A DNA stretch of 64,000 nt. It comes from Candidatus Sumerlaeales bacterium (GTDB taxonomy: Bacteria; Sumerlaeota; Sumerlaeia; Sumerlaeales; Sumerlaeaceae). Below, in pieces: positions 1-64,000 of the stretch (position 1 is the first letter of the stretch; each line of letters opens with the position of its first letter). Made by a program: the position numbers and the translations under genes. The stretch covers positions 33,445 through 97,444 of the forward strand of contig JBBSQY010000007.1 in NCBI GenBank assembly GCA_038243585.1, read 5' to 3'. The notes beneath the pieces are model-generated. The model saw only the letters and a list, made by a program, of their open reading frames with translations, had not been told where the DNA came from and searched no databases.

Positions 1-238
1 TATTTCCTTCAATGGTTGAGGAAACAACGCCGTCCTTATTACGGACAACAAAATCTTTTGGGAGCTTCATGCCCACCGGGTTTTCCCAACCGGCCAGAGA
101 TTCGTAGAAACCTAAACCATTCAGGTACGCAATTGAAGTCTCTGCTTCAATTTTCGCCAAGACTACTTCGCGCCCCTGGGTCTGGTTGGCGGCTTTCTTT
201 TTACGAGGCTCCGTTACTTTTCTTGATGTTTCGTTCAT
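1..238 (-). CDS. Hypothetical protein of the integrated element (partial, runs off the left edge)
   Basis: ATG at 238 preceded by AAGGAG. Frame stays open to base 1 (MNETSRKVTEPRKKKAANQTQGREVVLAKIEAETSIAYLNGLGFYESLAGWENP...). Divergent from the xis-int cluster. Absent from the ORF track because it has no stop in the window. Confidence 0.6.
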   Translation of the reverse strand, partial: MNETSRKVTEPRKKKAANQTQGREVVLAKIEAETSIAYLNGLGFYESLAGWENPVGMKLPKDFVVRNKDGVVSSTIEGN

Positions 239-8702: not shown

Positions 8703-11429
8703 TTAGTACAACTGCCAGTCGTCAACGCCGGAGCTTACCAATTCGAATCGGACGGCGTCCATTACGAACCGGTTACCAGGCGAAGATCCATTTCCGTCAA
8801 GATTCTTAAATCGTAGTGTGCCGTTCGTCCCGGCAGCAAACTGCACGTTTGCAGAAAGTAACGCCCACTGATTTACCAAATTTGCATCTGTAAATACCAG
8901 CCGCTTCTGCCCGGTTATGAGAGGTCCAGAACCTGTAATCGTATATTCCGTCAGGGCATCGTTGTTGTTGCCAGGACCCATCGTCACATAGATGTTATAG
9001 CCCCCAGGCACGGGCAGGTTTGGACGGAAAGTCGCTGTCTGATTGATCGTGGTGCCATAACGCGCTCCGCTTCCAGTCAATCCGGGAGCGGAACTTTTGC
9101 TGGTGGTGGGAAACATGCCCCCGCTTTCCACATAGGTAGGGGACGGAGTCACGTTGCCGTTGCTCAGGCGGCTCTCGACGATTACATCGGCGCTGACTAC
9201 GCTCACCGGACCGACCAGGGTCGCCGTGCCCTTGTTGTTGTAGTCATCGACCGGCACTATTTTATAGTAGTAGTTTCCCGCAGTCGGAAACGGGCCATCG
9301 GTGAAGCTGTTGCCTGTGATTGTCTGCGAGACGCCGACCTGGTTCGAGTATAATTCCCGGACCGATGATGAAGTCGAACGATAGATTAAATAATGGACTG
9401 GTACTTCACCGTCAGTGGCAGCCGCCGGCGTGTTCCAGGTTATGGTAGCATAATACTGCTGGCTGGTTGCGGTCCCGCCAAATATGGCAAGAGGCGGCGT
9501 ATTGTCATAGCCATCTTTCATCAGGTAATCCGGCAGCGGCGCGGCGGACGACATGACGTCCGGACCACAAGCAGTAGTCGCACTGCGGATCCGGGAAATC
9601 ATGCTCGTGCCAAATGCCTGAGATGGTATCAACAGGCTCTCGGCGCTGAAAATCCCGCTGCCGTTGAGCGGATACCCGGCTGACTGAGTGTCGCAGATGT
9701 TGTCGGCGAGGGCCTGGGCTGTGTTTGCCGCGTCCGTTGCATCGTCTATCTCAAGCGTAGCGAACAGAGGAGCCACATTGGTGTTTGATCCGGGCATAAG
9801 ACCATAATCCATGGGGTCGGAAACCTGATCGCCGTACAGGGCTTTTGTCATTAGAACACGGTTGGCCCCCGGTGCATTATAACTGCCACCAGGTCCGCCA
9901 CTGTTCCACTGGCGATAAAACTGCGGCTGGATTAGATCCTCGGCACCAAAAGTGATGGTACGGTTTGCCGTAGGTATGGCGCTCCACTTTGGCCAGCTTT
10001 GAAATACCCGGTTATAGGTATCATTGAAGCTGGTCACATAGGCAATGGGAACGGTTCCCACAATCATCCATGGCTTCATATCCGTCACCGCGACATAGGC
10101 GTCATGGAGGAATGTCGTAATTACTTCCTGCCGTTTTTTCTCAAAGGCAACGCTCTGCGGGTCGGGAGGGGAAGCAGGATTGTAACCCATTTCAATTAGG
10201 GCCTGAGGATTATAGCCGAAATTGTTGCCTTGGTAGCGGATGCGGTCGAAGATGATGCCGTCAAGATCGTAGTTTTGAACCAGGTCTTTCAGGACGTTGA
10301 TCGTGTGGGCGCGCACATCTGCACGACCTGGGTCAGCCCATAGACCCGACTTATCATCACCACCAGTACCCGCGGTTTGTGGAGTAGGTGCCGTACCAGG
10401 CCCGCGGTACACGTAGGTGACGCTGCCCGCCGGCATGGCGGACGGGTAATTATTGTTGCCGTCTGTAACGAGGAAGCAGGAGAATGCCCCATAGACACGC
10501 ATCCCGAGTTCATGTCCGCGATCAATGGCATACTGAACCGGATCATTGCCAGCGTTTGCACCGTTCCCAAAGGGTTCATTGTGCTGGTAAGTGTTGAAGT
10601 TGCGATTTTTAATGTAATAATGATTGGCCCGGTAGCGAACGAGGATGTCGATGCAGTTAAATCCGTTGGCTTTTGCCTGGGTTATGTAGGTTTCGATATT
10701 GGCCAGGCTGGTCAAGCCGTCTCCGATGGAAATCCAGCAATGGCGCTCTTCGCCGAAACTGCCGGGACCGATGCGTTTGATATTGTCGATGTAAACGGCG
10801 CTGGTGTTAGTGGCGACTGGCCATGTCGACGCGGATCCGCGGTGAGGGCCCGCAAAATCCGCGTGAGGCTCGCCGGGAGTGCCGATAGGGTCTGTACTGG
10901 GGTCTGTGCTGAAATAAAGGGTAAGATCCTTTGGAAAAGTGCCGCCTGCGGAAACCTGTACTCCAGCACCGATGGTCTGGTAGCCGAATGTCGCAGCGTT
11001 TGTGGGTCTGTCCGGCAGGTTCAGGATGTATCCCGCGTTTACATCGCTGACGCGGGCATTACTAGGCGAGCCGACCTTCGCAGCCATGCCGAAGGTGGCA
11101 ATGGGTCCCGCGGCGGTGTTGTTGACTTTCACGTCGGAGGTAACCATGTAAAATCCGGCTTCGGAGAAGGCGTTCGGAATGGTGACCACGACGCCGTTGA
11201 CGTTTCCGCCGGGGTCGGTCATCTGGAGGCGCTGACTGCCGCCTTCGGACGCCACGGAAAATGCGCTGGAAGAGTCGCCGGAGGCGGAGGAATTCGCCCC
11301 CGTGGCCCTGGCGATAGTCGGCAGTGCTCCTTCAAAATCCGACAGTACGACAGTATCGACGGGAGAAGCCGCTAGAAGGCCGGCGGGCAGTAAAGCAAAG
11401 AGAATGGAAGTAATATTTTTAAAGTTCAT
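8703..11429 (-). CDS. Secreted GHL10/DUF187 glycoside hydrolase-like protein with FN3-like and golvesin-like domains; C-terminal DWQLY tag
   Basis: Signal peptide MNFKNITSILFALLPAGLLA; WADPG...YDLDGIIFDRIRY TIM-barrel motif; YLIYRS/YYYKIVPVD FN3; VMDAVRF golvesin-like end; terminal SGVDDWQLY. Confidence 0.8.
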   Translation of the reverse strand: MNFKNITSILFALLPAGLLAASPVDTVVLSDFEGALPTIARATGANSSASGDSSSAFSVASEGGSQRLQMTDPGGNVNGVVVTIPNAFSEAGFYMVTSDVKVNNTAAGPIATFGMAAKVGSPSNARVSDVNAGYILNLPDRPTNAATFGYQTIGAGVQVSAGGTFPKDLTLYFSTDPSTDPIGTPGEPHADFAGPHRGSASTWPVATNTSAVYIDNIKRIGPGSFGEERHCWISIGDGLTSLANIETYITQAKANGFNCIDILVRYRANHYYIKNRNFNTYQHNEPFGNGANAGNDPVQYAIDRGHELGMRVYGAFSCFLVTDGNNNYPSAMPAGSVTYVYRGPGTAPTPQTAGTGGDDKSGLWADPGRADVRAHTINVLKDLVQNYDLDGIIFDRIRYQGNNFGYNPQALIEMGYNPASPPDPQSVAFEKKRQEVITTFLHDAYVAVTDMKPWMIVGTVPIAYVTSFNDTYNRVFQSWPKWSAIPTANRTITFGAEDLIQPQFYRQWNSGGPGGSYNAPGANRVLMTKALYGDQVSDPMDYGLMPGSNTNVAPLFATLEIDDATDAANTAQALADNICDTQSAGYPLNGSGIFSAESLLIPSQAFGTSMISRIRSATTACGPDVMSSAAPLPDYLMKDGYDNTPPLAIFGGTATSQQYYATITWNTPAAATDGEVPVHYLIYRSTSSSVRELYSNQVGVSQTITGNSFTDGPFPTAGNYYYKIVPVDDYNNKGTATLVGPVSVVSADVIVESRLSNGNVTPSPTYVESGGMFPTTSKSSAPGLTGSGARYGTTINQTATFRPNLPVPGGYNIYVTMGPGNNNDALTEYTITGSGPLITGQKRLVFTDANLVNQWALLSANVQFAAGTNGTLRFKNLDGNGSSPGNRFVMDAVRFELVSSGVDDWQLY

Positions 11430-11513
11430 ATAGGGGGACCGTTCGCCAAGGATATAACACGATAAGAAATACTGGTCTGCATAATTGAAATCTGCAAACC
11501 AGAAAAATCTTCT

Positions 11514-11536
11514 ATAGAACAAAATTTCTATTGATT
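11514..11536 (+). promoter_or_regulatory. Candidate SOS/LexA-like operator next to a possible -35 upstream of recA
   Basis: ATAGAA-CAAAAT-TTCTAT palindrome containing GAAC-N4-TTTC, abutting TTGATT. Confidence 0.35.
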
Positions 11537-28136: not shown

Positions 28137-31100
28137 CTAATCGACCACTTTTAGCACTGTTTCGTCTGCGTTGGCGCGGAGCGGTGGGAAATACATGGCG
28201 TAGCCGGTGGTGGGCATGGCGTGAAATGTCCCGGGGATTTCTGCGCGGATGTTGTAGGTCAGGGTGTGTTCGCCCTGGCGCAGAGTTGTTATGAAGAACG
28301 CGGTCCAGGCGTCGCGCAGTTCCATGTTCGACACCAGGCCGTTGCCGTATTTTGACCCGCTTTGTAGATCGACCGCTTCCATCCCGGCGGGCTTGGGATC
28401 TTCAAAGACGAGGTATTCGTAATCGTTGAGAGACTTGATCTTCAGGGTCACGCGCAGTTCGTCGCCGCTCTTCAGCGGGTCGCCCTCTTTCAGGGGAAGC
28501 CACTTGTCGCGGTAGATGACCGAGGCTTTACCGTTGACGGTTTCCGTGGTTTGTTCGCGATCGAGGATCTCATAGGCACGGGTGACGTAGATTTCATTGC
28601 CCGCTTTTTTGATGTCCTCTTCCAGGGTAAAATACTCGGCGTAGATGGAGTAGTAAACGTTTCCTTCGCCCTCGACGGTGAAGCTGAGGGGGAAGTCGCC
28701 GTCGGGAATGGCGTCGCCTCGCAGAGTGATGCGGCCGTCAAAATCCCAAAAATTCTCAGGAGTTACTTCCAGCGTCTTGATCAGTTCTCCGCCAGCGCGA
28801 ACCTGGATTTTGACCGGCTTTGCGGCTTCTTTGCGCTGGAGCATATACTGGGTGAGGGCCAGCACGGATTGGGCGGTGTCACGGGTGCTTTTCCAGCGGC
28901 CGCCCTGACGGTTCAGCACCAGCCACTTCATGGCCTGGTCAACGACAGGGTCGTCCGGCTTCAGGTCGAGGTAGGCCATCAGGCCAACGGCGGTGGCTTC
29001 GACGGGGTCGTCGTACCAGCGCCAGCCGCCGTCGATGCGGCCCCAGCGGAGGGTGTTGTTTTCAGGGGAAAAGACGGCCATGTTCACCATGTTGCGCAGC
29101 ACGACTTCCGCGTCGGGCGTGCGGCCGAGCTTGCCAAGGGTGCGGGCAAGCATAGCGAGGCCGTGGGCGCTCAGCTTGTCGCGACGTGACCACAGAAGTT
29201 CCACCGTGCGCGATGACGACTGGTTGTTCAGGGTAAGCACGTACTCCGCAAACATCAGGTTGTGGAGATTGTTGGGATACCAGTAGGTATCTCGTTCATC
29301 GCCAAGGCTTTTGCTGGTCGTGTCGTCGCGTAGCTCGGATAGGCGGCGCAGTCCACTGTCCATCATGGCGGGTTCCACGGTCACTTCGGCGTCGCGGGCG
29401 AGGGTGAGACCGTACATGACGTAGCTGGTCATGTAGAGATTCTCCGCGTCCTCCGCCCACCAGCCCCAACCGCCGGATGGAAGCTGCATGTCGCTCAGGC
29501 GCTTGAGGCTTTCCGCTGTTACTTTCGGCAGGCGTTCCTGCATGGATTGATCCAGAGGGTAGCCGAGCACCTGGAACGCGCGGGCGGCGACGGCGGCGGG
29601 CATAAACCGGCTCATGGTCTGCTCGACGCATCCGTAGGGGTAGTCAATCATGTAGGGGATAGCTTCGCGGATGGAGGAGGCGAGGGAGGGATTCACGATG
29701 ATGTCGAGTCGGGTGGTTTCCTTTATGCGCTCCACAGGGAGGGAGACCGTTTGCGTTATGATGCGGGCCGTGCCGGAGGTTTCGACGGTGACGCCTGTTG
29801 TAGCTTCGTCGCGGGACGTGCCGTTCCAGGCTACGAATTTATCAATGCCGTGGGGCATCAGCGGCACGGTTGTCTGCATGGCGTCGCTGCCGCCGGGCGA
29901 CAGCGCCATGAGATTCAGGATGGCTTCGCCGGGTTGGGCTGATTTGACGTTAACGGTCCAGTCGACCCGCTTTTCGCCGCCGGCTGGGACGGTGACGGTC
30001 TGGGTGTTGCCCATGAAATTCTCGTTGCCGCCGCCGGGCAGAGGCATGGTCGTCGCGCCGTCGAGGGCGACGCCCTGCGTGCGCAGGGTCGCTTCCATGC
30101 TTAGATCGGCGTTTGTATAGTTGTGCAGATTACCGGAGATGGTAACGCTGTCGCGTTCGCGGAAGAACCGCGGCGCCTGAAGCCGCGCCAGCACTTTCTT
30201 TCTGGCGACGGTATCTGTGGTTACGTTTCCAACGCGGGTATCGGCGGTCAGGCCGACGGCAACCATGCGCCATGTGGTGAGGGAGTCCGGATATTTTATG
30301 TCGACCGTCGCACTGCCAGCGGCGTCCGTGCGGATGGTGGGCGACCAGAACATGCTGTCGCGGAAGTCTGCGCGGATGGCGGGCGTTTCAATTCCCAGTT
30401 CTGCTTTAGCCTCAGCAGAATTGTCAAAGTCGCCCACCATGATATCCGGCAGGCCACTTATCACGGGCGCAGCCTTTGCCGCTGGCGCCGCTTCCGCCAT
30501 GGCCATGGCCGGCACCCCTGCGGTGCGGCTGCTTTTACTAAGAGACTTGTCTCGAAACGCCATTTCTTGTCCGGGTACTTCAAAGCGGAACAAGTTGTTT
30601 TCGCCGTCGCCTGCCATGTTCAGGTATCCCGACGCCGGAATAAGAAACCTTCCGTAGGAGCCAGAACTATTTATGGACGCACGAACATCGCTGCGCAGCG
30701 GGCGCTTCATGCCGTAGAACATGCGGCGAATGTCGGGCCGGGTGTCCGGCGCGATGTATGTGATGGCCTGGTCAAAAATCGAGAGGGACAGTTCCGCCGC
30801 TACAGGCGCGCCGGCCTCGTCCGTTGCGCGGATGGACACCTGGCCTGTTTCGCCGGGCTCAACGGTGGACTTTGCCGGCACGACTTCCACGTTGATCACC
30901 CGCGACGTGGGCGGGACGATCAGTTCGACTTCGTCGGTAATAATCGTCTTGTCGCGCACCGCCACGATGTGTATCATGCTGTTGGGCACAAACGCTTCAG
31001 TAATGGGTATTGAAACAAAGTTTGTCCGGTGGAGAAGGGGCAGGACCTGCTTGTGAAGATTGCCGCTGCCGGTGTCGATCCAATACCACGCTACGGCATC

Positions 31101-33899
31101 TTTGAACTCACTGAGGATCATGATGCGGGCGGTCTCGCCTACGGTGTAGAGGGTTTTATCTGTGATGATTTCCACGCCCTGGTAGCGGGTGGCGATATCC
31201 GTGTCGTCGGGCGATGCTGAGTAAAAACTGGCATAGGCGACAGACTCGCCGCCGAAGGGATCGGCCGCAATATAGGCGAACCGCAGCCGCCCGTGAAGGT
31301 CCTCTGCCACGCGCCAATCCAGCACCAGGGAACCACTCGCCTCAATAGAAACCGCCTGGCTGGACACAGTGGTGACGTCATCCTCTTCGGCCTTTTCGTT
31401 CCACATCAGCTTTTCTATGTAGAGCGTGCCGCTGCTGGGGACGGGCTTGTCGGCCAGATTTAACGACTTCAGTTCTACCCGCGCATTATCGCCCGGCGTG
31501 ACGATTGTCCGCTGGGTTTTGGCGGCGAGATTCAACGCTTTGAGGCCGACGGGGATTACCTGGCTGGCGTCGATGTTGCGCCGGCTGGCATCTGTGACGG
31601 TGACCTCGACCTGAAAATCCCAGGTGGAAGGGGACGGCGGCCAGAACATGCGGCGGCTGGCGCCGTCGCCGCCGTGAAGAGAATTTTCGGTCGGTTGCAA
31701 CTCGTTATCGGGCACAGTGGAATCAAAGGTGAGGGTGAAATTGCCATCGGCATCCAGCTTGCCTTCCCCTTGAGAAACGATGACGCCGCCGCTGCCGTGC
31801 ATTACGGGAGGGCGCTCCGGTGCTTCCTCAAACCAGCCTAAATCGCGGTCGTCCAGATTCCAGCTCATATTGTCCCACATCGTGCGAAAGCGGGGGCTAC
31901 GGCGAACCGTGTATTTCACTGTGCCGTCTGTCACTGGCGATCCGAAGAGATACTTCGCTTCGACCCGCGCCTTGACCGGCTGGCCAACGCGAGCGAAATC
32001 GTCTGCCGACTCCACCGACACTTCAAATTCCGGCTTTTTGTATTCTTCTACGCGAAACTGGCTGTTTCCAAAATGATTCTGCCGCTGGTCCAGAATTTGA
32101 ATTTGATACTGTCCGAGAGGCGCTCCCGCGATCAAATCGATTTCGCCTTCCAGGGTTCCGAATTCAGACAGCTTCATATCCTTTTGATCAAGCACGTCCT
32201 GTCCCTTCGGATCTCGGACCTTCACCTGGTATGTCATTCCCGTGGGCACCCGGTACTCGCCGCCAGCCTGGTTGCGTAAAATGGCGCGCCAGTAGACTTT
32301 TTGCTCAGGCCGATATACTGGACGATCCGTATAGAGGTATGTGTGAGGCTGTTCCTGTTCACGACCGTGATTAAACCGGGACCAGTGAAAGTTATCAAGG
32401 AGCGCAATGTTGTCACCGCTCGCAGCAACGGCGAAAAGCTGGCCGTTGACGCTTTCACCTTTAAACTCGGCGAACCCATCACTGCCGCTTTCTAAATTGT
32501 CGAATTCTGAAAAATACTGAAAGCTCTTTCCTGTCAGCCAATGATTATCGTTTTTCTGGTTGTGGGCGACGGTGATCGCGGCGCTCGCGCGCGGGCGACC
32601 GGTTTTGGCGTCAACGGTCCAGAACTCATATCCCTGGGGGCCGGTGTTGCCCACCAGCACCAGATCGCTAATTACCAGCATCGCATTGCAGGTGATTTTA
32701 CCGTCTACTTCCGCGCGCAGAACGTAAACGCCGGCCTTTTTAATGTTAAGCGTTACGGTGCGGGTGGTCGAATGAAAATCGCCGTTGTCTTCTACGGAGA
32801 CGTTTTCAGTAAACGTCGGCTTGCCCGTCACCGATTTCAGATCGAGGTCAGTAGTTTTTTGCCGTTGAAGTTCCTTCATTACGTTAAAAGGTGTGGCGGT
32901 GAACCGTACGCGACTGGTGTTTCTGGCGGTCAGGTTAAAGGTTATTTTTTCCCCTGGCAGGAACTGGCCCGACAGGGAAAAGATTGCTTCTGAGCGCTTT
33001 ATCTTTACGATTTCCTCCGCCGCCATGCCGGCTTCTTCAGCGCCGGCGAACTGGCTGACCAGCATCGCTAATTCGTAGAGGGCAGGTTCGAATTGCTGGA
33101 GGGAGATATAATGTTGGGCCACTTGCCATTGCGCGGTGGCGGCGGCGCGGGTGCGCGGAAACTCTGCGACGATGCCGCGCCATCCCGCTAACTTGTTATC
33201 GACAGGACGATCTGGCGTTTGAGCGGTCAAGGCTCCCTGGCGGCGGAGCTGCACGTCTGCAATTACCTCCTCCTGCCCTTCCAGAAGAGGAATGACTTTG
33301 TCAAAAAACGAGAGAATGTAAGCGCGATCGGATTCCTCCGGATAACGCAGCGTCGGCAGCTGGCTTTTGATCACATCCATGTAGAAATCAGCAAGGTCAG
33401 CCGGCTTTAGATCCGTGAGAATGCGATCAGCGGCGCGGAGATTCTTTAATGGATTGGTGGTGGAAACATCCAGCCATCGGTTTTGGTCGAGTCCATCCTG
33501 TGATCGCCAGAGCGCTCGCCCGGCCCAGACATCGGAAGGATTCTCTGCAATAAGGGCCTCGAATACGGCTGCGGCCTGGGGATTGTTATGGAGATGCAGC
33601 AGCGCCTGTCCCTTGATATATTGCAGCTCGCGATTCTCATCTGCGGTCAAGGTAGCGGTATCGGATTCATCCGCAGTATCGACGGCGAGCTTCCACGATT
33701 TTTCTTCAAAGTAGAAGCGAGCGGTTTCCAAAGTGCCAGAATTGGGTGGCGTCGCGACCACATGAACGGGAGCGTCGGCATCCGCTTGAAGAACCGCAGG
33801 AGGCGAGCCAGGCGCACCATAGCCAACCGCCCGTTCTGGCTTTGCCTGGATTGTTAACGTGGCAACGGATATACAAACGGCGCAAAGCAGATGTTTCAT
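28137..33899 (-). CDS. Bacterial alpha-2-macroglobulin family protein with N-terminal TPR-like region
   Basis: YTDRPVYRP (MG2), FRVEEYKKPEF, IRADF...FWSP, PDSLTTW, APRFF, thioester YPYGCVEQ, A2M C-terminal domain. Confidence 0.93.
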   Translation of the reverse strand: MKHLLCAVCISVATLTIQAKPERAVGYGAPGSPPAVLQADADAPVHVVATPPNSGTLETARFYFEEKSWKLAVDTADESDTATLTADENRELQYIKGQALLHLHNNPQAAAVFEALIAENPSDVWAGRALWRSQDGLDQNRWLDVSTTNPLKNLRAADRILTDLKPADLADFYMDVIKSQLPTLRYPEESDRAYILSFFDKVIPLLEGQEEVIADVQLRRQGALTAQTPDRPVDNKLAGWRGIVAEFPRTRAAATAQWQVAQHYISLQQFEPALYELAMLVSQFAGAEEAGMAAEEIVKIKRSEAIFSLSGQFLPGEKITFNLTARNTSRVRFTATPFNVMKELQRQKTTDLDLKSVTGKPTFTENVSVEDNGDFHSTTRTVTLNIKKAGVYVLRAEVDGKITCNAMLVISDLVLVGNTGPQGYEFWTVDAKTGRPRASAAITVAHNQKNDNHWLTGKSFQYFSEFDNLESGSDGFAEFKGESVNGQLFAVAASGDNIALLDNFHWSRFNHGREQEQPHTYLYTDRPVYRPEQKVYWRAILRNQAGGEYRVPTGMTYQVKVRDPKGQDVLDQKDMKLSEFGTLEGEIDLIAGAPLGQYQIQILDQRQNHFGNSQFRVEEYKKPEFEVSVESADDFARVGQPVKARVEAKYLFGSPVTDGTVKYTVRRSPRFRTMWDNMSWNLDDRDLGWFEEAPERPPVMHGSGGVIVSQGEGKLDADGNFTLTFDSTVPDNELQPTENSLHGGDGASRRMFWPPSPSTWDFQVEVTVTDASRRNIDASQVIPVGLKALNLAAKTQRTIVTPGDNARVELKSLNLADKPVPSSGTLYIEKLMWNEKAEEDDVTTVSSQAVSIEASGSLVLDWRVAEDLHGRLRFAYIAADPFGGESVAYASFYSASPDDTDIATRYQGVEIITDKTLYTVGETARIMILSEFKDAVAWYWIDTGSGNLHKQVLPLLHRTNFVSIPITEAFVPNSMIHIVAVRDKTIITDEVELIVPPTSRVINVEVVPAKSTVEPGETGQVSIRATDEAGAPVAAELSLSIFDQAITYIAPDTRPDIRRMFYGMKRPLRSDVRASINSSGSYGRFLIPASGYLNMAGDGENNLFRFEVPGQEMAFRDKSLSKSSRTAGVPAMAMAEAAPAAKAAPVISGLPDIMVGDFDNSAEAKAELGIETPAIRADFRDSMFWSPTIRTDAAGSATVDIKYPDSLTTWRMVAVGLTADTRVGNVTTDTVARKKVLARLQAPRFFRERDSVTISGNLHNYTNADLSMEATLRTQGVALDGATTMPLPGGGNENFMGNTQTVTVPAGGEKRVDWTVNVKSAQPGEAILNLMALSPGGSDAMQTTVPLMPHGIDKFVAWNGTSRDEATTGVTVETSGTARIITQTVSLPVERIKETTRLDIIVNPSLASSIREAIPYMIDYPYGCVEQTMSRFMPAAVAARAFQVLGYPLDQSMQERLPKVTAESLKRLSDMQLPSGGWGWWAEDAENLYMTSYVMYGLTLARDAEVTVEPAMMDSGLRRLSELRDDTTSKSLGDERDTYWYPNNLHNLMFAEYVLTLNNQSSSRTVELLWSRRDKLSAHGLAMLARTLGKLGRTPDAEVVLRNMVNMAVFSPENNTLRWGRIDGGWRWYDDPVEATAVGLMAYLDLKPDDPVVDQAMKWLVLNRQGGRWKSTRDTAQSVLALTQYMLQRKEAAKPVKIQVRAGGELIKTLEVTPENFWDFDGRITLRGDAIPDGDFPLSFTVEGEGNVYYSIYAEYFTLEEDIKKAGNEIYVTRAYEILDREQTTETVNGKASVIYRDKWLPLKEGDPLKSGDELRVTLKIKSLNDYEYLVFEDPKPAGMEAVDLQSGSKYGNGLVSNMELRDAWTAFFITTLRQGEHTLTYNIRAEIPGTFHAMPTTGYAMYFPPLRANADETVLKVVD

Positions 33900-44348: not shown

Positions 44349-45665
44349 TCACTGATAAAGCTGCCAATCCCGTGCAGCGGAAACCGGCCCCGGCTGTAGT
44401 CGGCGCGAGTAAACGGCCTTCGTCTCCGGCGCCCCCGGCTGACCAAACATTACCGACACGAAACCGTTGGCCCCTGCGGTCAAAGCCTGCTGCGGCACGT
44501 TACCCGTTTCATCCTGCAGGCGCGCCCACGGGGTCCAGGTTTGCCCTAGATCGCTTGTGCGGGTAACCAGGCCAGGCACCTGAAGTCTCAAAGAGATGGT
44601 AACGGCATAGCGTGCCGTGGCCATTACAACAATTTCGCCATTTTCACTATAGACAATCTTTTCAGGGACGATCTGTTGAAGATTAGGTATCTCGTCAAGC
44701 AGATCCGGCGGCCCAGGAATGTCCCTGAATGAGTGCCCGTTATTGTTCGAATGCCGTATGCGAAGGCTATCCGCCCCGTAGACCCATTCATCCGCCAGAA
44801 TCCAGTTGTCGGTGCCGTCTGTGCCGCCGACTGTTGAGACAATAGGTAAACCGAACGTGGCCCCGTTGTCATAACTAAACCTGGAAACCCGTTTGCCGGA
44901 AGTTGGCCTACCAAGAACAATCGGGAGATCATACTCATAGTAATTAATGAGTACGGCTTCTGACAGCGGGTCTGACTGAATATCCGCTTTATAATGCATG
45001 GGATTTTGATTCTGTAATATTATCGTTGATCCCCATGTTACGCCGTCATCCGTGGAGCGGACGTAGCGAACAACTCTTCCTGTACTCTGCATAACAATCC
45101 AGCAGGAGTTTCCGCAGTAAGCAACAAGCAACTGAGCGGAGTAAGCCGGGTCCTCTGCCGTAACAGGAAATTTCTCACTTAGGTCGACTATTGCAGGCCA
45201 GGTTTGACCGGAGTCGTGGGAAATTACAACGCCATGTTGGGGCACATAAGGCAGGTTGTGTTCCCCCACGACAATCGATGTCATCCAAATTCCATTTTCT
45301 CCAGCGGCAATTCTCGCGCCACGCCGATCGACGTTGTCTCTGCTTAAGGCAGGTAAAAGCTCACTTGGCTCGCTCCAACTCGCTCCGCGGTCGAAAGATT
45401 GCGCGAAGTAAGACGTATAGTAATGCGAGTGATTCTCTGGAACATTAACTAAGTAAACCCACACGGCCACCATCGTTCCGTTGGTGTCGCTGTCAACCGT
45501 AACACTTTGTACGTCCGCCGGACCCTGGTCCAGAATCACGGGAGGACTCCAATCTACCGCCACCCTCGGCATACCGGAACCAGGCAACGGCTCCGCGGCC
45601 ATTGCGGCGGTTGGTAGCAATGGTTGTAAAAGAAAAAGGCCGACTAAACCATGAAGAATATTCAT
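44349..45665 (-). CDS. Secreted BNR/Asp-box (sialidase-like beta-propeller) protein; C-terminal DWQLY tag
   Basis: GGAGG RBS, signal peptide, Asp-boxes (SFDRGASW, SHDSGQTW, STDDGVTW, SYDNGATF, SNNNGHSF, SDLGQTW); ends SAARDWQLYQ. Confidence 0.82.
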   Translation of the reverse strand: MNILHGLVGLFLLQPLLPTAAMAAEPLPGSGMPRVAVDWSPPVILDQGPADVQSVTVDSDTNGTMVAVWVYLVNVPENHSHYYTSYFAQSFDRGASWSEPSELLPALSRDNVDRRGARIAAGENGIWMTSIVVGEHNLPYVPQHGVVISHDSGQTWPAIVDLSEKFPVTAEDPAYSAQLLVAYCGNSCWIVMQSTGRVVRYVRSTDDGVTWGSTIILQNQNPMHYKADIQSDPLSEAVLINYYEYDLPIVLGRPTSGKRVSRFSYDNGATFGLPIVSTVGGTDGTDNWILADEWVYGADSLRIRHSNNNGHSFRDIPGPPDLLDEIPNLQQIVPEKIVYSENGEIVVMATARYAVTISLRLQVPGLVTRTSDLGQTWTPWARLQDETGNVPQQALTAGANGFVSVMFGQPGAPETKAVYSRRLQPGPVSAARDWQLYQ

Positions 45666-45761
45666 ATTTTTGCCTCCAATCTTTTCGGACCTGAAAATAT
45701 TCATTTTAACACTTGCATGAAATACAATGCCATCTAAGCTAAAAGTCCATAAACCTTCGTA

Positions 45762-56095: not shown

Positions 56096-58189
56096 TTAAG
56101 CCGACCTTTCCCGGAGAAGCTTTACCACGCTTGTCATAAATTCATTGCCATTGACCGGCTTGGCCACATGCAGGTCATATCCGGCCTTCAACGCTCGATC
56201 GCGGTCTTCGGGGCGGGCAAACACCGTCACCGCTATTGCAGGCGAGGTCCGGCTGCTGAATTGTGACTGGCGCACCTCGCGGATGAAATCATAGCCGTCT
56301 CTGTCCGGCATTCCGATGTCGCTTATCAGCAGGTCAAAATAGTTTTCTTGGATCAATAAAATTGCATCCGCGACAGACTGGGCCACCTTCACGGACGCCG
56401 CTTGTTTTTCAAACATTCGTCTAAACAAGTCACATACAACAGGATCGTCGTCCACAACCAGCACCTGCAAATCCATAAAGTTTGCCGCTTCAGAATCGCT
56501 GTCGGTCTGCCCGCCCGGAACCGCCGCCTGCGCGTTATCAACCCATGGAAGCCGCACAATAAAAGTTGCTCCCTGTCCTTCGCCCGGACTTTCGACAGAA
56601 ATTTCCCCTCCGTGCAGTTCAACGATGTTCTTGCAGATGGAAAGGCCAAGCCCCAGGCCGCCGGACCTTCGCGTGGTTGAACCATCCGCCTGAGTATACC
56701 TTTCGAACATTAAGGGCAGAAACGAGGCACTGATGCCGAGACCTGTATCAGAAATGCGGATTTCAATAAAATCGTCGATGCGATTTGCCGTCAAGTTCAC
56801 CGCCCCTCCAGACGGCGTAAACTTTACGGCGTTGGAGAAAAGATTCCAGAAAACCTGTTTGAGGCGAGCGGGGTCGCCGGTCATTCTTTTAACGGACGGT
56901 TCTGTCTCAATAGTAATGCGGATTCCCTTGGCCGCCGCCGAAGGCCGAACCGTCTCCAGTGCGATATCCAGAACCTCAGTCAGACTAATTGTTTCCGCGT
57001 CCAGGCGGAATTTGCCCGAAACAATCCGGCTAATGTCCAGCAGATCCTCAATAAGCTCCGCCTGGGCCCTCGCACTTCGTTCGATGGTGAGGAGACCCTT
57101 TTCCAGGTCAGATGCCTCCCGGGAATCTTCCCTGAGAAGCTGCGCCCACCCCAGAATCGCATTCAAAGGAGTGCGAAGTTCATGAGCTAGCAGCGCGAGA
57201 AACTCATCCTTCGCGCGACCCGCCTGCTCGACTTCCGCTCGCGCAGCCCTCTCGCTCACCAGCAATTGTTCGCGCAAGGCTTCCGTCTCTTTCCGTTCGG
57301 TAATATCCATGAAAGAGGTAATCGCGCCGGTCACTTGCCCCTGTCCGTCCTTCAACACGGAAAAATTGACCAGAATCGGCAGCCGAGAACCATCCGGCCG
57401 TTCCATATACATTTCCACGTCACGCTTTGGAATTCCCGTTTGCATCACTTTAAGGACGGGGTGCTCAGCGTCGGGCACCATAGCGCCGTCCGGCAGCCAC
57501 ATTTTTACCGAGCCGCAAGGGGTCTTGGTCCACGTTTCTGGTTCTTTCCCCCAAAGTTCCACCGCTCGCGGGTTATATTGTTGGATCACGCCCTCTTGGT
57601 CACACACGAAAACGCCCATGGGTGACGAGGTAAACAAAGCGCGGTATCGCTGTTCGTGCTCGGCTAATCGTTCTTCTGCCCGCCTCCGCACGTCCATTTC
57701 CTCACGCAGTTGGCCGTTCAGCTTCTCCGCCGCTTCGGTCAGCTCATGCTGGCGCACCGACCCCAGCATCAGCGCCTCGTTCATGGCTATGGTATTTTTG
57801 TGAGCCTTCACGCTCTCGGCGATCTGAATCAATATGTTGGCGACACCGGCTGTTGCCAGCACCGGCCATACGGTATACGACCAGAATAACTTATGAGGGT
57901 GGGCGGGGTCATGCTCTGTGTAGCTTTCCGGTCTGTCCGTTTGCAATACGCGATCAATCATCTTAAAGCACGCATCTTTTTCCGGCATCAACTCGTCGAA
58001 AGGCTTTCCAATGACTTCCGCAAGCGGCATATCCACCAGGCAGCAAAAGGCCGGATTGGCGTAACGGACCAGGTGAGAGTCCCCTTCTACCGTGACAATG
58101 GATAGCGGAGCATGATCGTTAATTGCAAGGCACAGGTCGGGAAAATCTGCCGGCAGATTTCCCGCTATGGGTGGCGGGTTTGTTTTCAT
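56096..58189 (-). CDS. PAS-PAS hybrid sensor histidine kinase/response regulator
   Basis: AHELRTPL, NLFSNAVKF, DTGLG, GGLGLGL; C-terminal receiver SDIGMP. Confidence 0.95.
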   Translation of the reverse strand: MKTNPPPIAGNLPADFPDLCLAINDHAPLSIVTVEGDSHLVRYANPAFCCLVDMPLAEVIGKPFDELMPEKDACFKMIDRVLQTDRPESYTEHDPAHPHKLFWSYTVWPVLATAGVANILIQIAESVKAHKNTIAMNEALMLGSVRQHELTEAAEKLNGQLREEMDVRRRAEERLAEHEQRYRALFTSSPMGVFVCDQEGVIQQYNPRAVELWGKEPETWTKTPCGSVKMWLPDGAMVPDAEHPVLKVMQTGIPKRDVEMYMERPDGSRLPILVNFSVLKDGQGQVTGAITSFMDITERKETEALREQLLVSERAARAEVEQAGRAKDEFLALLAHELRTPLNAILGWAQLLREDSREASDLEKGLLTIERSARAQAELIEDLLDISRIVSGKFRLDAETISLTEVLDIALETVRPSAAAKGIRITIETEPSVKRMTGDPARLKQVFWNLFSNAVKFTPSGGAVNLTANRIDDFIEIRISDTGLGISASFLPLMFERYTQADGSTTRRSGGLGLGLSICKNIVELHGGEISVESPGEGQGATFIVRLPWVDNAQAAVPGGQTDSDSEAANFMDLQVLVVDDDPVVCDLFRRMFEKQAASVKVAQSVADAILLIQENYFDLLISDIGMPDRDGYDFIREVRQSQFSSRTSPAIAVTVFARPEDRDRALKAGYDLHVAKPVNGNEFMTSVVKLLRERSA

Positions 58190-59763
58190 TTAGCTACGAG
58201 TTTCGCTTTGGGTTCGGGCGCTGGTTCATCTTCTTGAAACTCCCGCGGACCTGCGCGCCGGGGTATACCCGTAATCAGACCGACGTAATCCGTCCGTCGC
58301 GGATGAATGACCACGACGCCCTTGTCTGTGATCACATACTCGCGGATGTCCTTGCTGTGGTTTCCCCCGCGCATTTTAATCACCATCATAATCTTTCGCA
58401 GCTGACCGTCGATCTCCACATAACGCATTCGTAAAATGTCGTCAGTGAGAAACGAAATCGTATAATTGCTAAACGGCAGCGCGGTAAAAGTATCTTCCAC
58501 CTCGACCGTGCTGATAATTGTCACGCCGGCGCCCGTCAGCGCTCCGATCATCCGGTAGAGGGATTCGCGGAAGTCGGTGCGAAATCCCGGCGCCAGCGCC
58601 ATTTCAAATCCGACCAGCGAATCGATGACCAGACGTTTCGCCCCCACTCGTTCAACAGCGTCCAATATCTCCTGCATCGTTTCATCGACTGACAGGTCGA
58701 GCGGGCGAAGATACAGGATTTCGAGAGTTCCCTTTTCCTGCGGCGTTTTAAGATCCAGCCCAAAATTGTCCGCGCGATTCGTATATCCTGGCGGGCGTTC
58801 TTCGAAGATTGCCATAATCCCGGATTCGCCGTTACGCAAACCTTCAGCAATAAATTGCGTAGCCAGCGCAGACTTACCCGTGCCAGAAGGTCCTGCGATC
58901 AAAAGGCTGTCGCCTTCCCGAATCCCCCCGCCCATCATTTCGTCGAGGTCGGGTATGCCAATGGAAAGCTTTCGCCCGCGCAATGGTTTCGTTTTTTTCC
59001 CCACCAGACCCAACGTCCGCGAAAACGCCTGTAATCCGTCGTCGCCTATCCGGATGGTATGCAGCCCCGGCACCGATCCCTGCCCGCGCAGCTTCAAGAT
59101 CTGTAGCTTGCGGACAACGGAATTTCTCTCCACTACCTGCGAAAGCCAGTAAATGCCGTCGACGATAGTGAACAGGGGGTTATCCCGAATCTCGTCCCGT
59201 TCATACTCGCCCACCAGAAAAGTCGTCGCTTCCCAGCTGGTAAGAAATTGCGCCAGGCCCTGGATAAACGTCTGCATCTCCACTTCGCTTGCGCCGGCTA
59301 CCGCCCGGCGCATCACTGTGCGAAACGAATCCACGACTACGACACTCGGATTGGCCTCGGTAACCTGCTGAATGATCGACTGTAACACAGCGCCGAGATC
59401 CTGTTTCATGACCACTTCGCTCAGGTTTCTGAAATGGATGGCCGTGCCTAGCTTCGACTCGTCGAAAAAAGAGAACTGCTGCTGATACCGCAGCATCTTG
59501 ATGGCGGGCTCACCGAGTACGGTAAAATAAAGAGCCGGTTTCTTTTCTGTCGCGTTGGCAAAAATGATTTGATGCGCCATCGTCGTCTTACCGCAACCGG
59601 GCGTGCCGGCAATAATGTTAAAAGAAAATTCCGGAATTCCGCCGCCCAGGATATCGTCAAGACCCCGTACTCCGGATGGAATCTTTTTAATAATAACTTT
59701 AGACGGCAGACGGTCCGCAGCATGGGCCGGCTTGCCGTCAGCCGATTTGTCTTGTTTTTTCAT
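58186..59763 (-). CDS. KaiC-like/RAD55 double-domain ATPase
   Basis: Two RecA-fold domains: GTPGCGKT/VVDS/KLRG and GPSGTGKS/FEE/VIDS/KMRG. Confidence 0.92.
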   Translation of the reverse strand: MKKQDKSADGKPAHAADRLPSKVIIKKIPSGVRGLDDILGGGIPEFSFNIIAGTPGCGKTTMAHQIIFANATEKKPALYFTVLGEPAIKMLRYQQQFSFFDESKLGTAIHFRNLSEVVMKQDLGAVLQSIIQQVTEANPSVVVVDSFRTVMRRAVAGASEVEMQTFIQGLAQFLTSWEATTFLVGEYERDEIRDNPLFTIVDGIYWLSQVVERNSVVRKLQILKLRGQGSVPGLHTIRIGDDGLQAFSRTLGLVGKKTKPLRGRKLSIGIPDLDEMMGGGIREGDSLLIAGPSGTGKSALATQFIAEGLRNGESGIMAIFEERPPGYTNRADNFGLDLKTPQEKGTLEILYLRPLDLSVDETMQEILDAVERVGAKRLVIDSLVGFEMALAPGFRTDFRESLYRMIGALTGAGVTIISTVEVEDTFTALPFSNYTISFLTDDILRMRYVEIDGQLRKIMMVIKMRGGNHSKDIREYVITDKGVVVIHPRRTDYVGLITGIPRRAGPREFQEDEPAPEPKAKLVAK

Positions 59764-63795: not shown

Positions 63796-64000
63796 ATGGA
63801 GCCTTCATTGCCAAACCTTAATTCTCAATTGCGCCTGTTGTCACGGATCAGCCTTATTGTTATCGTTGGATTTTCAATAGCCTCGACGGACGTCAACGCT
63901 CAGGATGTCTCTAGCCAATGGACTTTTATGAAGGGGTCAACGAAGGTTTATGATCCAGGCTTCGGTGTAAAAGGCGTAGCGAGCGTGCAGAATACCCCCA
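63796..64000 (+). CDS. Secreted kelch/beta-propeller-like protein (partial, runs off the right edge)
   Basis: Open frame MEPSLPNLNSQLRLLSRISLIVIVGFSIASTDVNAQDVSSQWTFMKGSTKVYDPGFGVKGVASVQNTP; WTFMKG...G.KG.AS..NTP resembles kelch-repeat units. Start uncertain. Confidence 0.5.
   Translation, partial: MEPSLPNLNSQLRLLSRISLIVIVGFSIASTDVNAQDVSSQWTFMKGSTKVYDPGFGVKGVASVQNTP

Follow-up and report, generated by a model that had tools for sequence, protein, structure and literature searches.

A short tail at the C-terminus of unrelated exported proteins was followed in a 64,000-nucleotide stretch of DNA from a Candidatus Sumerlaeales bacterium (the window, G000:C7:33445-97444; contig JBBSQY010000007.1 of assembly GCA_038243585.1, positions 33,445 to 97,444), in the rest of its genome (G000, 3.43 Mb, 89.7% complete) and across its phylum. 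The tail holds up as a genuine sorting tag that spans the phylum and is absent from catalogues, and a candidate mechanism for it can be tested. In that mechanism, to which we give a probability of about 0.5, the tail would act as strand A of a fibronectin type III (Fn3) domain and be caught by a small exported protein (the catcher), after which a PorU-type transpeptidation would move the tagged protein to an envelope anchor. Two observations are new here: strand A of an Fn3 module seen in C25 peptidases appears to share its register with the tail, and a small exported Fn3 protein is predicted to lack this strand.

Two tagged proteins in the window

Positions 8703..8735 on the minus strand translated to S-S-G-V-D-D-W-Q-L-Y-stop and closed ORF 8703-11522, which extends to 11522 from a TTG codon and has its likely start near 11429 (908 aa record). 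The product (8703..11429) had a signal-peptide-like N-terminus, a GHL10 hydrolase domain in Pfam and a Golvesin_C-like last domain that scored below cut-off. The second tagged ORF (44349-45704, minus strand, likely start 45665) ended in V-S-A-A-R-D-W-Q-L-Y-Q-stop, with the tag at 44349..44384; its product (44349..45665) also had a signal-peptide-like N-terminus and carried BNR/Asp-box repeats, below the Pfam cut-off. With a position-specific scoring matrix (PSSM) for the tag, the two tails scored 26.1 and 28.9 bits, and these were the only tagged open reading frames (ORFs) in the window. The tails and their synonymous codons were as an earlier note on this DNA had described them. No NCBIfam model matched the full-length tagged window proteins. 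At the edge of the window, a kelch-like exported protein is represented by its 5' part (63796..64000, plus strand), its ORF running past the contig end; of its paralogues, that at C31:1985 was tagged and that at C46:11459 was untagged.

Recurrence, forms and placement of the tag

A loose pattern for the tail matched the ends of 99 of the 5856 closed ORFs of G000. The PSSM reached at least 10 bits at the C-terminus of 78 out of 2690 closed ORFs (a crude gene set), when 0.19 were expected. Because the PSSM had been trained on 73 pattern-picked ORFs, its rate in internal windows (14 matches in 986,171) was taken as the control from which the expectation was drawn. With 78 C-terminal matches against 0.19, the recurrence of the tag is not due to chance. 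The dominant form, class A, [STA]-x-[VAI]-x-D-W-x-L-Y, closed 83 proteins in G000 (at least 5 bits, at least 150 aa), with Trp at position 0 in 81, Tyr or Phe at +3 in all, and 0-1 residues beyond the last aromatic in 81. When further C-terminal motifs were sought in 634 untagged exported-like proteins, only one other tail emerged, class B, P-V-x-L-S-x-[FWY]-x-x-[ED], which closed 6 G000 proteins. The two classes shared a common register, with a hydrophobic residue at -3 and an aromatic one at 0. Among 63 homologues of the GHL10 protein in the window, 23 had class A ends, 12 had class B ends and 28 had neither; both classes occupied one and the same place, hybrids occurred, and the two forms are interchangeable.

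Far from being limited to two proteins, the tag was found on approximately 90 proteins of 52 families (single-linkage). A Pfam search of 23 of them returned GH43, LTD, M23, NAGPA, PIG-L, FG-GAP, BNR, BACON and DUF1501, besides unassigned proteins. By a crude heuristic, 70 of the 79 tagged proteins with a closed 5' end had a signal-peptide-like N-terminus without a transmembrane (TM) helix, compared with 634 of 2155 untagged ones (odds ratio 18.7, p=6e-27), and two tagged proteins that failed the heuristic carried twin-arginine leaders. A lipobox-like site was present in 1/79 and a TM-like segment of any kind in 1/79. Where paralogues were compared (GH43/ConA, Golvesin_C and one class B pair), the untagged proteins went no further than the final strand of their common domain, and the tagged ones added a few residues and then the tail, so the tag lies beyond the last strand of the domain and is not itself the final strand of a known one. 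None of nine tails examined (9/9) matched an NCBIfam sorting model. The earlier note's reading of the tail as a tag carried by secreted proteins, placed after the last domain and matching none of the established sorting signals, was supported, and none of the three findings that it had named as refuting came true; the second tail form and the PorU-like peptidases described below had escaped it. The tail would serve as an export address or an anchoring signal.

Some tails departed from the common form. Strong class A tags were followed by 4 and 6 extra residues in G000:C4:15711-16817 and C28:13040-15505, Phe replaced Trp at C15:20097 and C32:11205, and the proteins at C12:56015 and C12:57824 had a divergent Trp-containing end in common. 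An 83 aa ORF at G000:C84:5578-5829, a duplicated tail module, shared 95% identity with the tagged end of the C20:45434 protein (1298 aa). Approximately nine untagged G000 proteins ended in a Golvesin_C-like domain (e.g., C57:9105, C65:8727, C12:17398, C11:48092, C24:4244 and C2:52330), which may be a module for binding or another C-terminal address.

The survey of the tail's range covered Sumerlaeota. In 75 genomes of the phylum, the class A DNA pattern gave 1565 matches compared with 468 for the reversed control, and the class B pattern gave 256 compared with 52. A clear excess was seen in 49 genomes and no excess in 26. In one of the latter (G005), 20 pilin-centred loci contained six proteins with an Arg/His-variant tail, showing that fixed DNA patterns undercount lineage variants.

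A small Fn3 protein predicted to lack strand A

Two C25 proteins outscored by the Sumerlaeota set (P0077 and P0105) contained an Fn3-like module whose first strand was in the class B register. A profile built from these two sequences matched a small exported Fn3 protein of G000 outside the window (G000:C43:928-1464, plus strand; E 2.6e-8) from position 16 onward, i.e., without the first strand, and also a 145 aa lipoprotein whose gene overlapped a small C25 gene in G046. Relatives of this candidate catcher were found in 55 of the 75 genomes with a single query, and profile matches in 66, a count that includes intact domains in long proteins. In the best 30 matches the domain began after a low-complexity linker or a short helix, and none had a tag-like strand upstream. 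Inspection by eye found a lipobox-like Cys in 17 of the 18 best catchers outside the family of the window's genome and in none of 12 inside it. The structural model of the catcher (predicted local distance difference test, pLDDT, 94) had six main strands and an N-terminal helix. Fn3 domains made up most of its top VIA structural matches (best Z 9.5), with alignment beginning at their second strand; stand-alone Fn3 domains aligned from residue 14-19 (3teu 14..98, 3mpc 17..98, 8oq9 19..105). The catcher is thus predicted to be a six-stranded Fn3 fold lacking strand A, and it is a candidate for the dedicated receptor foreseen in the earlier note. No NCBIfam model described it (best E 0.003). In the ESM Atlas, one catcher fell with unnamed clusters at 0.93-0.95, the commonest taxon being Pseudomonadota; this is a lead only. 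Prediction of a complex between the catcher and a class A tail scored 0.00 twice, with the partner below pLDDT 50 and the controls not folded, and counts neither for nor against binding.

Intact domains of the same kind showed what a native strand A looks like. Among weaker profile matches (19 of 20 scored), 10 had a first strand of the form x-[VIA]-[DE]-[LM]-x-S-[FL]-x-A in the class B register, and 4 had a T-x-V-x-x-[LF] strand loosely in the class A register, with Leu or Phe in place of Trp (both by eye); 2-3 were further catchers. The median tag-PSSM score was -0.3 in the intact domains and -6.1 in the catchers (p=6e-4), the intact group including those 2-3 catchers. On an absolute scale the scores were low. 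Several proteins (L074:16449-17615; L232-L236, L240) combined an intact Fn3 domain of the catcher subfamily, whose own first strand was class-B-like, with a class A tail behind it; they could be chain extenders or adaptors. In part of the family to which the window belongs, catcher ORFs were longer, 368-417 aa (L193:7561-8730 in G066 and L151-L153), and the G066 catcher also matched a TPR profile.

C25 peptidases and the start of the tail

Three C25 peptidase genes (PF01364) were present in G000, all on the minus strand and outside the window (G000:C8:21028-25782, G000:C5:23681-28711 and G000:C49:14751-17564). The family was detected in 73 of the 75 phylum genomes, including 43/43 of the good ones, and in 0/14 controls. 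Sumerlaeota C25 peptidases fell into three size classes, and the His-Gly...Cys motif was intact in 26 of 26 examined; the three G000 genes have it intact. The best PDB match was PorU for two of these three and RgpB for the other. None of the best 150 C25 representatives bore the tag. One G000 C25 had 44 related loci, the closest (66%) in Ca. Sumerlaeales. The class of about 1500 aa occurred as two nearby copies in L067-L071 (G014, G017, G016, G009).

Type IX secretion system (T9SS) components were also sought. Its C-terminal domain (CTD) model TIGR04183 had no match in G000 at its 89.7% completeness, and PorV (PF19572) was found in 0/75 genomes with B. thetaiotaomicron positive as control. SprA_N (PF14349), which stands for the SprA/Sov translocon, was likewise found in 0/75, but it matched no control genome either.

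PorU cleaves at X/(GSA)(VLI), e.g., D/SVEDI and N/GVEDI, as listed in Table 2 of PMC4560394. Class A tails started with [STAN]-[ASGD]-[VAI]-x-D. Aligned to the motif, the 83 class A tags had S/T/A/N in 100%, G/S/A in 66%, V/L/I in 72% and D/E in 67%, the first and third positions being partly selected by the seed pattern. The start of the class A tail therefore bears a resemblance to the PorU cleavage motif at the level of residues.

Gene neighbourhoods of the catcher

The catcher gene adjoined a C25 gene of the class of about 780-980 aa in 5 of 20 fetched loci and in L073, i.e., in six genomes of five families. In L182, a variant-tailed cargo gene, the catcher gene and the C25 gene followed each other on one strand, and in L177 and L183 a class B cargo gene adjoined the catcher gene. 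The small C25 gene behind the L182 catcher (L182:4178-6491, G020:C33) was split into two ORFs of 507 and 288 aa, by either a frameshift or an assembly error.

Proposed mechanism and the points against it

We propose that Sec or Tat would most likely take the cargo across the inner membrane and that the cargo would fold. The tail would then complete the Fn3 sandwich of the catcher as its missing strand A (donor-strand capture). A PorU-like C25 peptidase would cleave immediately ahead of that strand, at [STAN]/[ASG][VAI], and transfer the cargo to an envelope acceptor. The tag, the genes, their distribution and their neighbourhoods are observed and the catcher fold is predicted; binding, cleavage and transfer are inferred, as are the identity of the anchor and its side of the membrane. 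Passage of the outer membrane through a secretin/pseudopilin machine is also plausible. In T9SS cargo the Ig-like sorting domain is present in cis; here tag and catcher would together restore it in trans.

Several results weigh against this mechanism. The three G000 C25 peptidases scored 118-185 bits against NCBIfam PorU/PorU2 cut-offs of 420/450 (160-185 against 420 for the PorU model NF033707). An Arg 32 residues past the catalytic Cys is described as conserved in PorU orthologues (PMC4560394), and it was absent in the two G000 C25s aligned to PorU (6ZA2). Native strand A sequences were closer to class B than to class A, the dominant form: Trp was found at the aromatic position of no intact domain, and the tag PSSMs reached 5 bits or more in only 1 of 21. 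The variant tail of G005, with Arg/His for Asp, fitted the PorU motif more poorly. Nine of the 75 genomes (58-94% complete) had no catcher match, including the tag-rich G001 and G062 and the variant-tagged G005, and tag excess did not follow C25 copy number (rho 0.21, p=0.07). The blind rate of catcher-C25 adjacency was 2/17, because three of the five adjacent loci had been chosen on coordinates that already showed the adjacency, and the catchers of G000 and G066 adjoined neither a C25 gene nor a tagged gene. Finally, tag, catcher and C25 alone leave unexplained the linkage of tagged genes to pilin genes described below.

Alternative explanations

The catcher might take up the strand without any cutting, holding or shuttling cargo non-covalently, with the C25 peptidases having some other role. 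All of the profile, model and structural-match evidence for the catcher fits this arrangement too, and the missing PorU Arg and the low PorU scores agree with it. The lipoprotein-like catchers outside the window's family (17/18) could themselves be the anchor, and at least seven proteins with an intact Fn3 and a class A tag would permit chains. We nevertheless consider it unlikely, given that catcher and C25 genes are neighbours in five families, that other C25 proteins (P0077, P0105) contain this Fn3 module as a fusion and that the residues preceding the strand fit a PorU site. It would also leave one catcher gene to serve approximately 90 cargo genes in G000, and the 12 catchers of the window's family have no lipobox.

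Pilin genes point to a second explanation, in which the tail would be an export signal read when it adds as a beta-strand to the pseudopilins of a machine for type II secretion or type IV pili. A pilin-motif gene was adjacent to 11 of 89 tagged genes (one of them a false pilin) compared with 17 of 592 untagged exported controls (p=3e-4). Seven tag-then-pilin pairs no more than 200 nt apart were found by eye in four distant genomes, and it was in pilin-centred loci that the six variant-tailed G005 proteins were found. G000 has three secretin genes and one GspK-like gene, the latter unlinked, and its two tagged twin-arginine proteins are compatible with such a route. A precedent is available in PilC/PilY1, whose last ~10 residues form a beta-strand on PilK (PMC13533445). 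However, the linked pilins were GspG-like with Glu5 present, unlike the strand-accepting PilK type of the precedent, a PilK/GspK minor pilin without Glu5. Their GspG-like family is expanded and was present in 74 of 75 genomes; Foldseek returned no match at E<=0.001 for a pilin model, with GspG and type IV pilins as its weak top rows. Pilin adjacency was limited to about 11% of tagged genes, and tag and pilin counts were weakly correlated (rho 0.33; within the family 0.83, falling to a non-significant 0.36 per Mb), kin genomes not being independent. No catcher gene lay beside a pilin gene in 20 loci, and the strand-less Fn3 would be left unexplained. The tag-pilin linkage may stem from the route of export, or from nutrient-uptake loci that both kinds of gene share, which could explain the adjacency. 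We regard pseudopilins as an unlikely receptor for the tail.

A free C-terminus bound by another periplasmic receptor, or read as a signal of the beta-barrel assembly machinery (BAM) type, is improbable. The receptor could be the TPR protein encoded behind the C25 gene of about 1800 aa in 29 of the 36 loci that could be evaluated (8 of 44 being truncated), a protein of 337-385 aa with an N-terminal TM segment. TPR genes also flanked the catcher in 5 of 20 loci, and the fixed end of the tail, 0-1 residues past the last aromatic in 81 of 83, agrees with such a reading. On the other hand, the TPR family was poorly conserved (1 invariant column of 450), the cargo were soluble enzymes and binding proteins rather than barrels, and the Fn3 strand register would go unexplained; the TPR protein may instead be an accessory part of the tag-catcher-C25 mechanism. 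That the tail is a leftover without function, or that it forms the closing strand of some common domain, as its likeness to strand A of a possibly truncated Fn3 might suggest, is very improbable and largely refuted by its presence in 52 unrelated families, its synonymous codon differences, its retention across the phylum with lineage-specific variants and the ending of untagged paralogues at the true last strand.

Comparison with known systems

With donor-strand capture and PorU-type transfer as the preferred mechanism, the system was compared with known ones. T9SS attachment (PorU, PDB 6ZA2, NF033707; CTD TIGR04183) likewise combines N-terminal export with a C-terminal signal on unrelated cargo. 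Both systems have C25 peptidases with a His/Cys dyad, the start of the tail resembles the X/(GSA)(VLI) site of PorU (PMC4560394), and an Ig-like sandwich would directly follow the cut (PMC4560394, PMC11285876). Unlike T9SS, whose CTDs are 40-82 aa and whose shortest described CTDs are 40-55 aa (PMC11969387), the tag has approximately 10 residues and the Ig-like fold would be divided between two genes. There was no TIGR04183 in G000 and no PorV in 75 genomes, the PorU Arg was absent and scores were below the cut-offs; T9SS genes are said to be confined to the Fibrobacteres-Chlorobi-Bacteroidetes (FCB) phyla (PMC11285876). Judged from sequence, the Sumerlaeota system would work like the attachment step of T9SS and falls outside T9SS proper, with no CTD, no PorV and no PorU orthologue.

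As in PilC/PilY1, about 10 extreme C-terminal residues would be a putative strand completing the sheet of another protein, in a setting that includes pilin and secretin genes, with partial linkage. The differences are that approximately 90 unrelated cargo take the place of one tip adhesin, that the candidate acceptor is an Fn3 protein and that the linked pilins are GspG-like. Type V pili (Mfa/Fim) are built by donor-strand assembly, matured by gingipains and held by a lipoprotein anchor, and their fold differs from that of an Fn3 tag/catcher system. They combine a C-terminal donor strand, a lipoprotein acceptor and a C25-family protease, as would the Sumerlaeota system, whose cargo are diverse enzymes and not pilins, with no polymer shown. 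Tripartite signals (LPXTG, PEP-CTERM, GlyGly-CTERM, MYXO-CTERM) are, like the tag, C-terminal, present in many copies and carried by non-homologous signal-peptide proteins that have untagged homologues. Numbered features 1, 2, 6, 7 and 8 of such signals (bioRxiv 2023.06.07.544157) were found in the tag; features 4 and 5 were not, the tag having neither a TM segment nor a basic cluster.

A literature search returned no description of the tail or the catcher, supplements and most subscription papers being outside its scope. Of two Sumerlaeota genome papers, PMC8092238 gave 0 hits for C25/gingipain and PMC10866078 gave 0 hits for secretion, pilin, C-terminal and peptidase.

Implications and other genes

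A fuller picture, possible but doubtful as a whole, is surface display free of T9SS. About 3% of the proteome would carry the donor strand, and a strand-less Fn3 would restore in trans a domain like the CTD. Three PorU-like transpeptidases, of which one has a membrane TPR partner, would cut the cargo and anchor it covalently; export would fall to a secretin machine equipped with dozens of GspG-like pilins. If so, a natural tag/catcher would be joined to a sortase, and the pathway might be ancestral to the T9SS attachment module or have branched off from it. If the tag works as proposed, a whole phylum of uncultured polysaccharide degraders would have an address label and candidate machinery assigned to its secretome, its surface enzymes would be predictable from sequence, and PorU-like C25 peptidases outside Bacteroidota would have a substrate. 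Substrate recognition by PorU, an open question in T9SS, could be tested in vitro using a single enzyme, a synthetic peptide and a domain of 100 residues, and a natural peptide/catcher pair read by a transpeptidase could serve protein labelling.

Three other genes were noted. In the window, an untagged bacterial alpha-2-macroglobulin of 1920 aa is encoded at 28137-33899 (minus strand), and a KaiC-like gene (NF006799, 250 bits, below cut-off) overlaps a hybrid sensor kinase gene at 56096-59763 (minus strand). Elsewhere in the genome, G000:C14:7255-14844 (L017) encodes an exported-like protein of 2529 aa with an N-terminal ubiquitin domain and FG-GAP, HYR and DUF11 repeats.

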